A stretch of DNA of 17,404 nt from the UHGV virus genome UHGV-2147075; one strand, given 5' to 3'. The position numbers and the translations under genes are program-made. Positions within the stretch are counted from its first letter, which is position 1. The number at the start of each line of letters is the position of its first letter. This DNA comes from a virus. The notes below the pieces were generated by a model. That model saw nothing but the letters and a program-made list of their open reading frames with translations. It ran no database searches and had not been told where the DNA came from. This document shows, piece after piece, positions 1 through 5,591 of this stretch.

Positions 1-1416
1 GTGAAACAAAGCACTATTGCACTGGCACTCTTACCGTTACTGTTTTCCCCTGTGACAAAAGCCCGGACACCAGAAATGCCTGTTCTGGAAAACCGGGCTG
101 CTCAGGGCGATATTACTGCACCCGGCGGTGCTCGCCGTTTAACGGGGGATCAGACCGCCGCTCTGCGTGATTCTCTTAGCGATAAACCTGCAAAAAATAT
201 TATTTTGCTGATTGGCGATGGGATGGGGGACTCGGAAATTACTGCTGCACGCAATTATGCCGAAGGTGCGGGCGGCTTTTTTAAAGGTATCGATGCCTTA
301 CCGCTTACCGGACAATACACACACTATGCGCTGAATAAAAAAACCGGCAAACCGGACTACGTCACCGACTCGGCTGCATCAGCAACCGCCTGGTCAACTG
401 GTGTCAAAACCTATAACGGCGCGCTGGGCGTCGATATTCACGAAAAAGATCACCCAACGATTCTGGAAATGGCAAAAGCCGCAGGTCTGGCGACCGGTAA
501 CGTTTCTACCGCAGAGTTGCAGGATGCTACGCCCGCTGCGCTGGTGGCGCATGTGACCTCGCGCAAATGCTACGGTCCGAGCGCGACCAGTGAAAAATGT
601 CCGGGTAACGCTCTGGAAAAAGGCGGAAAAGGATCGATTACCGAACAGCTGCTTAACGCCCGTGCCGATGTTACGCTTGGCGGCGGCGCAAAAACCTTTG
701 CTGAAACGGCAACCGCCGGTGAATGGCAGGGAAAAACGCTGCGTGAACAGGCACAGGCGCGTGGTTATCAGTTGGTGAGTGATGCTGCCTCACTGAATTC
801 GGTGACGGAAGCGAATCAGCAAAAACCCCTATTAGGACTGTTTGCTGACGGCAATATGCCAGTGCGCTGGCTAGGACCGAAAGCAACGTACCACGGCAAT
901 ATCGACAAGCCCGCAGTTACCTGTACGCCTAATCCGCAACGTAATGACAGCGTACCGACCCTGGCGCAGATGACCGACAAAGCCATTGAATTGTTGAGTA
1001 AAAATGAGAAAGGCTTTTTCCTGCAAGTTGAAGGTGCATCAATCGATAAACAGGATCACGCTGCGAATCCTTGTGGGCAAATTGGCGAGACGGTCGATCT
1101 CGATGAAGCCGTACAACGTGCGCTGGAATTCGCTAAAAAGGATGGCAACACGCTGGTCATAGTCACCGCTGATCACGCCCACGCCAGCCAGATTGTCGCG
1201 CCGGACACCAAAGCGCCGGGCCTCACCCAGGCGCTAAATACCAAAGATGGCGCAGTGATGGTGATGAGTTACGGGAACTCCGAAGAGGATTCACAAGAAC
1301 ATACCGGCAGTCAGTTGCGTATTGCAGCGTATGGCCCACATGCCGCCAATGTCGTTGGACTGACCGACCAGACCGATCTCTTCTACACCATGAAAGCCGC
1401 CCTGGGGCTGAAATAA
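1..1416 (+). CDS. phoA: alkaline phosphatase, periplasmic (complete; GTG start at window base 1)
   Basis: 471-codon ORF; translation recognisable as enterobacterial PhoA (signal peptide [15 protein letters not shown], catalytic-serine region [12 protein letters not shown], metal-ligand region TADHAHASQ); TAA stop at 1414-1416. Confidence 0.97.
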
Positions 1417-1460: not shown

Positions 1461-1534
1461 CTGTTAGCAACCAGACTTAATGGCAGATCACGGGCGCAAA
1501 CGCTCATGGTTAAAACATGAAGAGGGATGGTGCT

Positions 1535-1567
1535 ATGAAAATAACATTACTGGTTACCTTGCTTTTC
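1535..1567 (+). pseudogene. psiF: 5' fragment of phosphate-starvation-inducible psiF, disrupted by prophage insertion
   Basis: ATG at 1535 with RBS GAAGAGGGATGG upstream; encodes MKITLLVTLLF, which matches the PsiF N-terminus as I recall it; reading frame then runs into the phage terminus and stops at TGA 1568-1570. Confidence 0.8.
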
Positions 1568-1645
1568 TGATGCGCCGCGCGATAAACGCACTCTATCTTG
1601 TGCGATAAATGGCATCCACGCGGCGTTTCATTATTTGAAAAAGAA
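1568..1645. mobile_element. prophage right terminus (attR-like; candidate transposase-binding sites)
   Basis: Read toward the end, the terminus is ...CATTTATCGCACAAGATAGAGTGCGTTTATCGCGCGGCGCATCA-3'. Phage Mu right end as recalled is ...CATTTATCGTGAAACGCTTTCGCGTTTTTCGTGCGCCGCTTCA-3' (same CATTTATCG block at the same distance, same CG-rich terminal block, terminal CA). Only 78 bp separate the terminus from the invertase stop. Confidence 0.65.
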
Positions 1646-2218
1646 TTACATTTCAGGTTGCGTTATGACAGTCCCAACAGGGTGATAGCGGTAGATCGTT
1701 GACAGTCCAATATCATAGATAATTGCCAGCCGCTTTCTGTCATACCCTTTCTGGAGCAATCTTGCGATCTGCTCATGCTGCTCCTTCGTCAGTTTCGGGC
1801 GACGTCCTCCAACTCTTCCTTGTGCTCGCGCAGCAGCCAGTCCTGCCAGCGTGCGCTCAACTATCAGTTCACGCTCCATTTCTGCCAGTGCACCCATCAT
1901 ATGAAAAAAGAACCTTCCCATCGGAGTGCTGGTATCGATTGAATCCGTCAGACTGCGAAAATTGACACCTTTTGCGCGTAGCTCTTCTGTGAGAGCAATG
2001 AGGTGTTTCATTCTTCTACCCAACCGATCCAGCTTCCAGACCACCAATGTATCCCCTCTTTTAAGGCACTTTAAAGCGCGTTTCAGGCCTGGTCGTTCCG
2101 ACTTGGTTCCGCTCATTTTGTCCTCAAAAATCTGTTCACATCCTGCGCACATTAATGCATTGCGTTGCAAATCTGTGTTTTGGTCATTTGTTGACACACG
2201 TATGTAGCCAATCAGCAT
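1646..2218 (-). CDS. site-specific DNA invertase, serine recombinase of the Gin/Pin/Cin/Hin family
   Basis: 190 codons from ATG at 2216-2218 (the ORF track extends upstream to a non-start position); N-terminus MLIGYIRVSTNDQNTDLQ with catalytic Ser, C-terminal helix-turn-helix; strongly resembles Mu Gin / e14 Pin as recalled; RBS GGGAG 8 nt upstream. Confidence 0.95.
   Translation of the reverse strand: MLIGYIRVSTNDQNTDLQRNALMCAGCEQIFEDKMSGTKSERPGLKRALKCLKRGDTLVVWKLDRLGRRMKHLIALTEELRAKGVNFRSLTDSIDTSTPMGRFFFHMMGALAEMERELIVERTLAGLAAARAQGRVGGRRPKLTKEQHEQIARLLQKGYDRKRLAIIYDIGLSTIYRYHPVGTVITQPEM
2065..2125. promoter_or_regulatory. candidate Fis-dependent recombinational enhancer inside the invertase 5' coding region
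   Basis: Two 15-bp Fis-like sites with G and C at the ends and AT-rich centres: GGCACTTTAAAGCGC (2065-2079) and GCTCATTTTGTCCTC (2111-2125), centres 46 bp apart, at about +101 and +147 of the invertase gene. In Gin/Hin/Cin systems the enhancer sits at this position. Confidence 0.35.
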
Positions 2219-2231
2219 TAAAAATACTCCC

Positions 2232-2259
2232 TTTTGAGTGGTTAAAGTACTGAGATAAT
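2232..2259 (+). promoter_or_regulatory. candidate extended -10 promoter reading into the invertible segment
   Basis: TGAGATAAT at 2251-2259 (TG-n-GATAAT) with weak -35 TTTTGA at 2232-2237 (16-bp spacer); divergent from the invertase gene. Sequence-pattern call only. Confidence 0.3.
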
Positions 2260-2272
2260 GTGGGGAGGATTT

Positions 2273-2298
2273 GAGAGATAAACGTTGGTTTAGGAGAA
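2273..2298. other. left crossover site for the invertase (gix/pix-like, 26 bp)
   Basis: GAGAGATAAACG-TT-GGTTTAGGAGAA; the inner half-site is identical to that of the right site, outer halves differ, and sequence identity between the two inverted repeats begins exactly at the central dinucleotide (2285-2286). Half-sites fit the Gin/Hin pattern (..TAAACC). Confidence 0.6.
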
Positions 2299-2478
2299 GG
2301 CTCGGCGCTACCCGTTGGTGTGCCTGTTCCGTGGCCCACCGCCACACCGCCAGCAGGCTGGNNNNNNNNNNNNNNNNNNNNNNNNNNNNNNNNNNNNNNN
2401 NCTGGCCAGAGTCTACCCGACCCTCCGTCTTCCCGATTTACGCGGTGAGTTTATCCGTGGATGGGACGACGGGCGCAA
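2285..2478. repeat. left inverted repeat of the invertible segment (contains the N gap)
   Basis: Reverse-complement identical to 3698-3896 wherever sequence is present; mapping is x to 6181-x before the gap and x to 6176-x after it. Confidence 0.9.
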
Positions 2479-2797
2479 AGTTGATACAGGACGTAAGTTG
2501 CTGTCCGCACAAGGGGCAACGCTGTTAAGAACAGCAATGCTGGATTATTATAACCAGGACACTACGGGAACCTCGGGGATAGTCGGCATGGGATTCAACA
2601 ATGAAGATTCCATTACAGACCTTCGTGAGGGCAGCTTTAAAATGCCGGACGGGACAACATTCAGCAATCCTGTCATGGCAATGTCAGACAATGGTATGCA
2701 GGCTACTATTCTGACCTCTATCAGAAGCGGGTATGCGAAGGGTATCACTGTCAGACCCCGTAGCATTGCACTTAATTACATTGTGAGGGCAGTTTAA
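2287..2797 (+). CDS. alternative tail-fibre C-terminal cassette (no start codon; fused to the fibre gene only after inversion)
   Basis: Open frame from the crossover site to TAA at 2795-2797. The first ~65 codons are the inverted-repeat copy of the fibre constant/variable junction (...LGEGSALPVGVPVPWPTATPPAGW, gap, LARVYPTLRLPDLRGEFIRGWDDGRK), then a divergent variable end ...RPRSIALNYIVRAV. The frame is continuous only if the gap is 45 nt. Confidence 0.8.
2362..2401. other. assembly gap (40 N) inside the left inverted repeat
   Basis: Run of N; the intact right copy (3775-3819) is 45 nt across the same interval, so the gap is an arbitrary-length placeholder that is 5 nt short. Confidence 0.95.
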
Positions 2798-3411
2798 TGA
2801 GTAACACTGCAGTTCTGGATGAAAACGGTATCGCCACTGTAGCGGGCGATATCACTGTATATCACTATGACGAGGAAACCCGGGAATACACCTCATCCTC
2901 TGTGGAGTATCTCGCCCTTGGGGTGGGTACTCCGGCACATTCGTGCGCCGATGCACCGCCGGAGGCAATTTCGGGTTACGTGGTTTGTCGGACTGCCACG
3001 CTGAACGGGTGGGAGCATGTGCCTGATCACCGCGGCGAGACGGTATACAGCACGGAGAACGGTAACCCCGTTCTGATTACCCAACCGGGTGATTACCCGG
3101 CGGACACCACCACAAAACAGCCAGCCACGCCATGGGATACCTGGAACGGTGAGGCGTGGGTAACCGATACTGAACGGCAGCGAGCCGCAGAACTGGAGGT
3201 TGCCAGACAGCAACGCCAGCAACGGGTGAAACAGGCGATGGCGTCCGTCGATCTTATCAACCTCAAACTGCGTGCTGGTCGCAGTCTGACACCAGAAGAA
3301 ACGGCAAAACTGAACGCCGTGCTGGATTATATCGACGAGCTGAACGCACTGGATATCAGCACGGCACCTGAAATCAGCTGGCCGGAAGCGCCACTGGCAC
3401 TTGCCAGTTGA
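2797..3411 (+). CDS. tail fibre assembly chaperone (Tfa; Mu U / P2 G-like)
   Basis: 204 codons; ATG overlaps the cassette stop (TAATG); C-terminal region ...LNAVLDYIDELNALDISTAPEISWPEAP is typical of the conserved Tfa C-terminus; SD-like GAGGG upstream. Confidence 0.88.
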   Translation: MSNTAVLDENGIATVAGDITVYHYDEETREYTSSSVEYLALGVGTPAHSCADAPPEAISGYVVCRTATLNGWEHVPDHRGETVYSTENGNPVLITQPGDYPADTTTKQPATPWDTWNGEAWVTDTERQRAAELEVARQQRQQRVKQAMASVDLINLKLRAGRSLTPEETAKLNAVLDYIDELNALDISTAPEISWPEAPLALAS

Positions 3412-3417
3412 ACGGTA

Positions 3418-5010
3418 TCACGCCGCCCTCACGATATAGTTAAACGCGATATTGCGGGGGCGGGTTATGTTAAAGAATGCTCCGTTTAATACGGCTTTTG
3501 CGCGACTGTTTGTTCCACCCAGCATTGCGTACCACAAATAATCGCTACGGTAATTCCCCGCAAACACCTTATCGCCGCCATAGTCAATATTATTTCCGTT
3601 ACTCATGTACGAGATATCAAGCGAAGAATCGTTATCGTCATGACCGCCGACCAGTGTACCTTTCTGCCATGAAAGCAACTTACGCCCCTCGTCAATCTTG
3701 CGCCCGTCGTCCCATCCACGGATAAACTCACCGCGTAAATCGGGAAGACGGAGGGTCGGGTAGACTCTGGCCAGAACAGGATATTGTTCTTTGGTGAACG
3801 TAGCTCCGTTGCACTGTAACCAGCCTGCTGGCGGTGTGGCGGTGGGCCACGGAACAGGCACACCAACGGGTAGCGCCGAGCCTTCTCCTAAACCAAGGTA
3901 ATTGAGGACATCTTTTATACTGCCCTTAGCGATAATAGCGCGACCAATAGCTGTAAGGGTTGCCAGCGCTGCGCGGTCTGCTCCGGTAAAATAAGGCAAC
4001 CGATCTGCTGCAGTGGCAAGCCCTGCCAGAGCAGTGAGCGTGGCATCTGCCGGTTGTTTTCCGTTTGCCAGATCGTATGCAGCCTTGACCGCTTTCGGTG
4101 TGGCGGCCAGTATTTCAGACGTGCTGTTGATGGCACTGCTCAATTGTACGGTGCCTTTTGCCGTCAGCGAGGCAGCAGGCACTCCCGTTATCTGACTCCA
4201 CGGGTGAGTGTGGCTGACGGGCGCCTTGCCGGCTGCAAGGTCGTATGCAGCCTTGACCGCCTTCGGCGTGGCAGCCTCAGTTTCTGATTGACTGTCCGTG
4301 GCGCTGCTCAGTTGTACGGTGCCTTTTGCCGTCAGCGAGGCAGCAGGCACTCCCGTTATCTGACTCCACGGGTGAGTGTGGCTGACGGGGGCCTTGCCGG
4401 CAGCCAGGTCATATGCAGCCTTGACGGCCTTTGGTGTGGCGGCCAGCGTTTCAGAGGTGCTGTTGGTGGCACTGCTCAGTTGTACGATCCCTTTACGGGT
4501 CGTTGTTGCATCCTGGGCTGTGTATTTTCCCCGGGCCAGATCATACGCGATTTTCACAGCCTTCGGCGTGGCAGCCTCAGTTTCTGATTGACTGTCCGTG
4601 GCACTGCTCAGTTGTACGGTGCCTTTTGCCATCAGCGAGGCAGCAGGCACTCCCGTTATCTGACTCCACGGGTGAGTGTGGCTGACGGGTGCCTTGCCGG
4701 CTGCAAGGTCGTATGCAGCCTTGACGGCTTTTGGTGTGGCGGCCAGCGTTTCAGAGGTGCTGTTGGTGGCACTGCTCAGTTGGGTGAACCCCTTAGCTGT
4801 CAGTGTCGCGTCCGGGTGGTTACGGGAACGCACGTGTTCAGCCAGTGACTGTGCGGCTTCCTCCGTTTTCTTCTTCAGCCATTTCGTCCTGTTTGCCAGT
4901 TGCCGGGGGGCTCGATTTGATATCCCGTCAGCACCACCCAGAACCGGATCTGATGTCTCCAGTTGATAGATATTTTCTTCCCACTTTTCTGTTTCATTCA
5001 GGTTTCCCAT
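3418..5010 (-). CDS. tail fibre protein (constant part plus currently joined variable C-terminus)
   Basis: 530 codons from ATG at 5008-5010 (SD GGGAG upstream, 2 nt after the upstream gene stop; the TTG at 5016 used by the ORF track is less likely). Five tandem copies of a ~56-aa phage-fibre repeat (KG.VQLSSAT.S.SET.AATPKAVK.AYDLA); the gene crosses the right crossover site; C-terminus ...NITRPRNIAFNYIVRAA. Confidence 0.92.
   Translation of the reverse strand: MGNLNETEKWEENIYQLETSDPVLGGADGISNRAPRQLANRTKWLKKKTEEAAQSLAEHVRSRNHPDATLTAKGFTQLSSATNSTSETLAATPKAVKAAYDLAAGKAPVSHTHPWSQITGVPAASLMAKGTVQLSSATDSQSETEAATPKAVKIAYDLARGKYTAQDATTTRKGIVQLSSATNSTSETLAATPKAVKAAYDLAAGKAPVSHTHPWSQITGVPAASLTAKGTVQLSSATDSQSETEAATPKAVKAAYDLAAGKAPVSHTHPWSQITGVPAASLTAKGTVQLSSAINSTSEILAATPKAVKAAYDLANGKQPADATLTALAGLATAADRLPYFTGADRAALATLTAIGRAIIAKGSIKDVLNYLGLGEGSALPVGVPVPWPTATPPAGWLQCNGATFTKEQYPVLARVYPTLRLPDLRGEFIRGWDDGRKIDEGRKLLSWQKGTLVGGHDDNDSSLDISYMSNGNNIDYGGDKVFAGNYRSDYLWYAMLGGTNSRAKAVLNGAFFNITRPRNIAFNYIVRAA
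3698..3896. repeat. right inverted repeat of the invertible segment
   Basis: Reverse-complement identical to 2285-2478; similarity decays gradually inward past 3698. Confidence 0.9.
3883..3908. other. right crossover site for the invertase (gix/pix-like, 26 bp)
   Basis: TTCTCCTAAACC-AA-GGTAATTGAGGA; lies inside the fibre coding sequence (codons for ..LNYLGLGEG..); same core dinucleotide as the left site when both are read inside-out. Confidence 0.6.
4057..4797. repeat. coding tandem-repeat array inside the tail fibre gene
   Basis: Near-identical DNA blocks, e.g. CAGTTGTACGGTGCCTTTTGCCGTCAGCGAGGCAGCAGGCACTCCCGTTATCTGACTCCACGGGTGAGTGTGGCTGACGGG at about 4306 and 4606, with a further copy near 4141; corresponds to the 5 protein repeats. 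Confidence 0.85.
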
Positions 5011-5012
5011 AA

Positions 5013-5591
5013 TCAACTGCTCCCGTGGTTATAACTGCCATCATGGATGGCGGTATTGTTATAGCGAATAGCCACAGACTGATACTCCAGGCTGGCCAGA
5101 TGGCAGCGGGCCGGTGCAAATGCAGCGAGCGTCTGACGCAGCATCGCGGCCTGATCGTTAGTAATGGGCTGTTTCAGAATAACGCGATAAACCGCCCAGG
5201 CGGCTGCATCTCCATGAACAAACAGTCCGTTATAGCTGCGATTGCCGTCGTAACTGAGACGACCTGTGCCTTCAATCAGATCCACTTCACCAAAGCCAAA
5301 ACGGCGGATAACTTCCCGGATTGACCACGGCGTCCCTTTATACTGGTGTAGTTCGATGGCTGCTTTTATAAGCATGCGGCGAACATCGTCCGATTCCGCC
5401 AGCTCCCAGCCATCGCCGAACAGTGAGAACTGCTCTCCCAGCCATGGCAGCGCGGAACTGTCGACGATATCGACGAGATAGACCATCAGTACGCTCAGGT
5501 CGATGTTATCCAGCCGCCCGGCCAGTCTTCCCAGCGTTCTGAGGCTGATATCCCCCTCAAGCGGTGGCGGGAGTTGTAGCGGCTCAGCCAT
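5013..5591 (-). CDS. baseplate/tail protein, P2 gpI-like (Mu gp48-like)
   Basis: 192 codons, ATG at 5589-5591 overlapping the upstream stop; size, position between the J-like gene and the fibre, and a central motif (...ELHQYKGTPWSIREVIRRFGFG...) fit the tail-protein-I family. Confidence 0.8.
   Translation of the reverse strand: MAEPLQLPPPLEGDISLRTLGRLAGRLDNIDLSVLMVYLVDIVDSSALPWLGEQFSLFGDGWELAESDDVRRMLIKAAIELHQYKGTPWSIREVIRRFGFGEVDLIEGTGRLSYDGNRSYNGLFVHGDAAAWAVYRVILKQPITNDQAAMLRQTLAAFAPARCHLASLEYQSVAIRYNNTAIHDGSYNHGSS

Follow-up and report, generated by a model that had tools for sequence, protein, structure and literature searches.

A two-state, Min-type tail-fibre inversion module with a single tfa gene, widespread in Escherichia coli

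The stretch of UHGV virus genome UHGV-2147075 analyzed here (17,404 nucleotides, hereafter the window) carries an invertible tail-fibre segment with two alternative fibre ends and a single tfa chaperone gene. We found that this architecture is already known, being the minimal two-state form of the Min type, that it is widespread in Escherichia coli and that it is not a defect. The original prediction, made from this DNA alone, had presented one tfa for two fibre ends as an oddity; this was overstated, since one tfa for two to eight ends is a common and conserved arrangement. Taken as a whole, the explanation that we favour, with slightly better than an even chance of being right, is a minimal two-cassette inversion module of the p15B Min type with a common Tfa acting in trans. 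Two inverted 26-bp sites, one of them inside the fibre gene, are recombined by a Din-family invertase, and inversion fuses Sc, the constant part of the fibre, in frame to one or the other of two T4 gp37-type tips, SvA and SvB; the single tfa, tied to SvB, flips each time. The features concerned are the following.

1646-2218, minus strand: Din-family serine DNA invertase (Gin/Cin/Pin/Min-like), 190 amino acids (Pfam Resolvase, E=8e-51; HTH_7, E=1e-12)
2273-2298, plus strand: left crossover site, 26 bp, GAGAGATAAACG-TT-GGTTTAGGAGAA, with the central TT at 2285-2286
2287-2797, plus strand: SvB, the silent alternative fibre end (cassette type A0), fused in frame to Sc when the gap is filled with 45 nt
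2362-2401, no strand: run of 40 N standing for 45 nt, hence not length-true
2797-3411, plus strand: tfa, 204 amino acids (Caudo_TAP, PF02413, E=3.5e-28, 98.8 bits against a cut-off of 22.1)
3412-3417, no strand: 6-bp spacer ACGGTA between the tfa stop codon (3409-3411) and the fibre stop codon (3418-3420)
3418-3894, minus strand: SvA, the currently joined fibre end, 158 amino acids (Pfam Collar, E=3e-15)
3418-5010, minus strand: joined fibre gene (Sc plus SvA), one open reading frame
3883-3908, minus strand: right crossover site, 26 bp, reading TCCTCAATTACC-TT-GGTTTAGGAGAA in the fibre sense, with the central dinucleotide at 3895-3896
3895-5010, minus strand: Sc, the constant part of the tail-fibre gene (Phage_fiber_2, E=2e-93)

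The two crossover sites lie in inverted orientation at the outer edges of the inverted-repeat blocks, which form two pairs (2282-2361/3820-3899, 99% complementary, and 2402-2505/3671-3774, 92%). Both sites are imperfect palindromes sharing the half-site GGTTTAGGAGAA and the central TT, and in 25 of 27 related loci the junctions nearest the invertase keep this half-site together with the central dinucleotide. They appear to resemble the published gix site. As exchange occurs at the central dinucleotides, the invertible segment is exactly 2287-3894, and the presence of exactly two crossover sites in the window makes it a two-state switch. The invertase gene is co-oriented with the fibre gene and lies downstream of it; its counterpart in the relatives is annotated as a 'recombinase family protein' (WP_000904922.1).

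The left repeat arm contains the run of N, and it could be argued that this gap conceals a second tfa or a further part of the segment, or that such sequence was collapsed by the repeats during assembly. Such an artefact is very improbable. Three closed genomes that are 99% identical to the window (L001-L003; related loci carry L numbers throughout) have the same gene order and 45 nt at the position of the N-run, and the other repeat arm likewise has 45 nt there (3775-3819). With 45 nt in the gap, Sc and SvB are fused in frame in the flipped state, and the fusion ends in a TAATG overlap of its stop codon with the tfa start codon; when the 40 N are taken at face value the silent cassette appears frameshifted. 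The second tfa that the original prediction thought might surface once the gap was resolved is ruled out by the 45 nt of the closed relatives, and a hidden Markov model built from the Tfa sequences of the fetched loci detected no second tfa in the 17.4-kb window. The N-run is located in the sole patch of difference between the two repeat arms. It suggests an assembly break due either to the inverted repeat or to mixed orientations in the sequenced culture, and for annotation it means that N-runs inside such repeats should not be read as length-true.

The segment thus holds one Caudo_TAP gene, as does the window, in agreement with the earlier claim of a single tfa. It is positioned immediately 3' of the fibre end SvB, which always lies directly 5' of it, and its Shine-Dalgarno sequence, GAGG, is inside the conserved VRA codons of the co-oriented cassette. 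In the present orientation tfa and the joined fibre gene are convergent, tail to tail and not 'head to head' as first worded, and their stop codons are separated by the 6 bp that had been reported; this abutment is precise and conserved in relatives. The geometry had also been described correctly: the fibre is currently made without a downstream chaperone gene and tfa is antisense to late transcription. A terminator between the convergent genes was considered and rejected, which again agrees with the earlier reading, because none was found in or across the 6-bp gap and the region has four terminator-like sites against 3.5 expected by chance, the nearest being a weak one about 100 nt inside tfa. 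We also rejected a 109-amino-acid open reading frame antisense to tfa (2893-3222) as an alternative chaperone gene downstream of SvA because its frame is not conserved; in the diverged tfa genes of one-tfa arrays the longest such frame is 74 amino acids (L045 type), with medians no higher than those of other tfa genes. No sequence match was found between the window Tfa and solved structures, hence there is no direct link to the structure of the Mu protein, TfaMu.

Comparison with related prophages, which had been proposed as a check, was carried out and revealed both one-tfa arrays and two-tfa segments. Many complete E. coli genomes contain the whole region, with its gene order unchanged. Because the SvB-tfa-SvA unit inside the segment by itself covers more than 80% of a longer query, the orientations were counted with junction-specific queries: of 5426 complete genomes, 73 have Sc joined to SvA and 239 have it joined to SvB. 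Full-length 100% matches were found for each orientation, and at least 594 genomes contain the SvB-tfa unit. The SvA/tfa/SvB unit, with an identical Tfa (WP_000072166.1), is found also on a P2-like prophage (L005, NZ_CP059332.1) and on a 92.5-kb P1-like phage-plasmid (L006, NZ_CP032875.1). It behaves like a host-range module exchanged among unrelated myovirus backbones (Mu-, P2- and P1-like). In L002-L005 a third end cassette, ending in ...NYIVRAA and a stop codon, runs straight into another crossover site, and there is still one tfa.

To place these loci we mapped 80 viral contigs with this tip family. One class is of the Mu/P1 type, with a tip-tfa unit facing a tfa-tip unit (L017, L028, L034, L054 and L061); the other has two to eight abutting cassettes and a single tfa beside the invertase (L018, L039, L043, L045, L046, L063, L081 and the relatives of the window). 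Loci with two to eight abutting cassettes and one tfa number 20, window included, and every complete cassette has an open frame and matches the tip model over essentially its whole length. A second survey, with one genome per species, covered the rest of the Enterobacterales. There the plain tip-then-tfa and the two-tfa types predominate, and some gp37-type tips have no tfa in the fetched flanks, for instance in Yersinia (L124 and L127) and Photorhabdus (L144 and L148). On a contig of Dryocola clanedunensis (L110) two convergent gp37-type ends (2-490 and 579-1097) are separated by 86 nt that contain no tfa; they may belong to an invertible segment without an internal chaperone gene, on a contig too short to include the flanks.

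Among known systems, the Min system of plasmid p15B, of which P1/P7-like phage-plasmids have copies, was reportedly described by Sandmeier, Iida and Arber in 1990-92 and is said to have 240 states. It has in common with the window a Din-family invertase, a 26-bp site at each cassette's 5' end, abutting cassettes, one Sc and a single tfa. This likeness was judged through the published gene table of a region with 99% identity and not from the p15B sequence itself: the region of pMCR_SCKP-LL83, reported to be 99% identical to p15B min, comprises a fibre gene, small cassette open reading frames, one tfaE, more cassettes and pin (PMC5786510). The p15B system differs in having more than two sites and overlapping segments, where the window has only two sites and two cassettes and therefore two states, and the backbone of the window is instead that of a Mu-like transposable prophage. 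The Mu G, P1 C and e14 P segments share with the window the invertase family, the position of the invertase and the in-frame swap of fibre C-termini, and the module of the window lies at the right end of the prophage as it does in Mu. These segments, however, have one tfa per orientation (U and U'), whereas the window has one tfa that is antisense in one orientation; in P1, which has both U and U', gene U is essential in its orientation (PMC10695390). Shufflons with three repeats, three alternative C-termini and a Gin-like recombinase have been demonstrated by experiment in a P2-like prophage of the enteropathogenic E. coli (EPEC) strain E2348/69, in which all four variants coexist in culture (PMC4272514), and in the Enterobacter phage FRphi, in which the three-end switch is active and deletion of gin locks its state (PMC13418256). 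Compared by published description, L002-L005 have the same three-cassette layout. A chaperone is not mentioned in the accessible passages of the EPEC paper, and the word is absent from the FRphi paper. The chaperone of the window itself belongs to the lambda Tfa family of the Stf/Tfa system, that is to Caudo_TAP.

All cassettes in the one-tfa arrays point toward the single tfa. Since each Din-type inversion joins one site on each strand and carries tfa along, a cassette keeps its strand relation to tfa, and from this topology we infer that the cassettes form two fixed sets, one always co-transcribed with tfa and the other always antisense to it. Fusion of a co-oriented cassette to Sc would place tfa downstream on the same transcript, and fusion of an opposite cassette would leave tfa antisense. 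Of the two cassettes of the window, SvB is co-oriented with tfa and SvA lies opposite. Co-oriented and antisense cassettes number one and six in L043, one and four in L039, and five and three in L045. Clustering by variable region gave 13 cassette types with more than one member; six of these occur in both sets, one even within the single array L045. The SvB type (A0) was found in the position 5' of tfa in 12 of 12 cases and a type of 154 amino acids in six of six; a third type was seen there once (L018) and is also present elsewhere. The first two of these types were thus seen in no other position. The SvA type is convergent on tfa in nine of nine cases. As the two sets match in size and intactness in the relatives, the topology implies that the function of the antisense ends cannot depend on co-transcription with tfa.

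The original prediction had allowed that one orientation might be non-functional. Put more explicitly, the SvA orientation could be fibre-defective or poorly infectious, the single tfa being the remnant of a Mu/P1-type segment that has lost its second chaperone gene. The two tfa genes of the classical segments (the Mu/P1-type loci listed above, and U and U' in P1) would fit such a history, and so would the SvB-joined state being about three times commoner than the SvA-joined one in assemblies. In the FRphi shufflon only one of three locked isoforms infected the tested host (PMC13418256), an observation that is equally explained by receptor specificity. However, none of eight SvA copies has a stop codon, and arrays keep up to six intact antisense cassettes whose types also occur co-oriented. 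The module with an identical Tfa has in addition spread over three phage backbones, and the 6-bp abutment, precise and conserved, is unlike a ragged deletion scar. A non-functional orientation is therefore disfavoured, SvA being joined in the 73 complete genomes noted above, and the loss of a second chaperone gene appears improbable. The evidence argues strongly against the antisense ends being dead, which we regard as unlikely.

If both ends work, how one chaperone gene relates to several tips becomes the central point. Each cassette is self-contained: its variable middle is enclosed by a conserved collar at the N-terminal part and by a conserved C-terminal strand. All cassettes have some 220 nt at their start and 14 codons at their end in common, far beyond what the invertase needs, because each cassette is a complete frame of collar and returning C-terminal strand. 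We compared 119 heterologous co-directional pairs of tip and tfa (homologues from L008-L167) with SvB and Tfa of the window. Median identities of the tips were 76% in the collar part, 29% in the variable part and 79% in the last 14 residues, and those of Tfa were 55% in the N-domain (N-terminal 110 residues) and 37% in the C-domain. The identity of the Tfa N-domain followed that of the collar part (r=0.47) and not that of the tip variable region (r=0.05). Since the N-domain tracks the conserved collar frame and not the variable tip, one common chaperone is plausible: judged from these alignments, it is structurally plausible that a chaperone reading the shared collar frame could serve every cassette. 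We therefore propose, tentatively and at somewhat less than an even chance, that Tfa is a common chaperone for all cassettes and acts in trans in small amounts. Such a Tfa would recognise the shared collar and the C-terminal frame.

In the SvA orientation the supply of this common Tfa would not come from late read-through. Candidate sources would be a weak promoter, possibly of a type other than sigma-70, oppositely oriented phage copies in the same induced cell, or co-resident tfa genes. Flipped copies arising during lytic replication are a candidate because the invertase gene follows the fibre gene in the sense direction, downstream of the late transcript. As to the promoter, which the original prediction had suggested, a promoter scan of 1500-5100, in which phage-specific late promoters were not modelled, found no sigma-70 promoter for tfa. 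In a position-weight scan the best scores in the invertase-side spacer were 9.0 at 2191 and 7.9 at 2234, and the best inside SvB was 7.4; shuffled sequences averaged 7.6, with 10.7 as their 95th percentile, and the cassettes 5' of tfa scored no better than orphan cassettes. An extended -10-like sequence, TGAGATAAT, is present at 2250-2258 and is only loosely matched as TGGTATAGG in the second spacer family. A separate promoter for tfa thus has no support above chance in these sigma-70-like scans, and any particular route of Tfa supply in the SvA orientation is at present unsupported.

The orphan ends, that is SvA and every cassette not directly 5' of tfa, could instead fold without Tfa, in which case tfa would serve only SvB. 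This appears unlikely, although considerably less so than a defective orientation. Although the topology never lets them share a transcript with tfa, the ends of the antisense set are numerous and intact. Orphan types move between the two sets, while two of the three types found 5' of tfa stay there, and the absence of a promoter signal above chance points the same way. Tips of the gp37 type without tfa exist elsewhere, namely the Yersinia and Photorhabdus loci and the L110 pair described above. In T4, mutations in gene 37 can bypass gp38. In xenorhabdicin a fibre swap without a chaperone swap suffices to transfer specificity, and the authors suggest a chaperone that is either common or non-essential (PMC13280938), the second of which would suit Tfa-independent ends. 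Against such independence, the SvA tip's closest relatives outside arrays (69% and 60% identical) are each accompanied by a co-directional tfa of their own, so that the SvA lineage is normally Tfa-associated. The SvC type, an orphan relative of SvB, shares with it the motif Q-AT-x-x-RTA-x-x-DYY, and the tfa-linked type is thus not a structurally separate class. The Tfa N-domain moreover tracks a frame that is common to all cassettes, and the essentiality of gene U in P1, cited above, does not favour chaperone-free folding either.

We nevertheless retain the common Tfa acting in trans as the preferred reading, and several points weigh against it. No promoter signal for tfa rises above that of shuffled sequences, whether in the spacer between the invertase gene and the crossover site or in the cassettes 5' of tfa. 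The position directly 5' of tfa is mostly held by a dedicated cassette type, and tfa could serve that end only. The Tfa of Mu, the only one with a solved structure, binds the distal fibre tip and has an N-domain described as non-conserved, as summarised in PMC9608196; this binding fits a tip-specific chaperone better than a common one. The published generalisation is reversed in the Tfa subfamily of the window, in which the N-domain is better conserved than the C-domain. Orientation counts say nothing about fibre function, since prophages flip neutrally, and orientation frequencies were rejected as functional evidence for this reason. The ratio of nonsynonymous to synonymous polymorphism (pN/pS) of SvA, about 0.2, was likewise dropped because it derives from eight copies, too few for this purpose, with most changes clustered in the shared repeat part.

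The rule of two fixed sets makes the question of chaperone dependence a general one. It is conceivable, if rather doubtful, that the tips of the antisense set are natural gp37-type ends that fold without a cognate co-expressed Tfa, or else that these modules hide an orientation-independent production of Tfa. Either outcome, if true, would provide a general rule for fibre libraries that are chaperone-free or have a single chaperone. This matters because swapping of tail fibres is the main route by which phages and tailocins are re-targeted, and the usual rule is that a new tip travels with its own chaperone. Should one Tfa serve up to eight tips, or should the tips need none, this rule would fail for the present gp37-type family, and cassette libraries could be built around a single chaperone. 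Roughly one in ten complete E. coli genomes, or more, has the module, which occurs on three phage backbones, and the two-cassette form of the window offers the simplest natural test system, having two states in one of which the only chaperone gene is antisense.

The alternative ends themselves are T4 gp37-type tips. SvA consists of a collar part, a variable middle and the C-terminal sequence RNIAFNYIVRAA. It matches the T4 gp37 tip (PDB 2XGF) in the collar (E=1e-15) and in the terminal NIAFNYIVR motif; this second stretch spans the SvA C-terminus (RNIAFNYIVRAA against KNIAFNYIVRLA) and is a weak match whose own E-value is not significant. The tips of the window are much shorter than T4 gp37, with cassettes of 158-171 amino acids, and SvA is without HxH repeats.

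RefSeq annotation of L001 (2253-2735) and L005 (5270-5752) splits SvB into a 'pseudo' tail-protein fragment and a 'hypothetical protein'. The SvB frame is really open in both, with stop-to-stop open reading frames of 175-177 amino acids. Silent fibre cassettes are systematically mis-annotated, and small 'phage tail protein' open reading frames beside such invertases should be read as silent fibre ends.

The start of Sc at 5010 corresponds to the start of the RefSeq coding sequence in L001, and the joined fibre open reading frame encodes 530 amino acids from this ATG or 532 from a TTG at 5016. Within Sc, tandem direct repeats (D1) extend over 4067-4816 as three aligned copies of 282 nt, and Pfam Phage_fiber_2 matches in five stretches. 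The annotated fibre length is about 530, 540 and 640 amino acids in L001, L002 and L003, respectively, all of which have this module, and these different lengths indicate variation in repeat number in Sc between strains.

On the left of the module the window contains host DNA, with one further annotated feature.

1-1416, plus strand: phoA

The 33 nt at 1535-1567 (MKITLLVTLLF) correspond to the start of E. coli psiF and are all that is left of this gene. Similarity to prophages of other strains starts at 1568, where the sequence begins TGATGCGCCGCGCGATAAACGC, and from there on the window is occupied by leftward-reading phage genes. Beyond the invertase and the tail fibre these encode P2-I-like and Baseplate_J proteins (Pfam), followed by gp25/W, V, D, U, tape-measure, tube and sheath proteins and head-completion proteins of the Mu Gp36 and Gp37 families. 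Depending on the strain, this end of the prophage elsewhere adjoins dcuC, a truncated irp1, a truncated glycosidase gene next to uvrD, or aroA; ssuB, idi and paaJ also appear in the match table, for further strains. As this end lies beside different host genes in different strains, the element is, on comparison of these junctions, a Mu-like transposable prophage with its right end at about 1568, inserted in psiF just downstream of phoA. The invertase gene lies about 80 nt from the right end of the prophage, the same placing as that of gin in Mu.

In this insertion, host transcription from phoA and the start of psiF is directed toward the prophage end. Were it to continue beyond the terminator region of phoA (about 1420-1450), it would run antisense to the invertase gene and in the sense direction through SvB and tfa.

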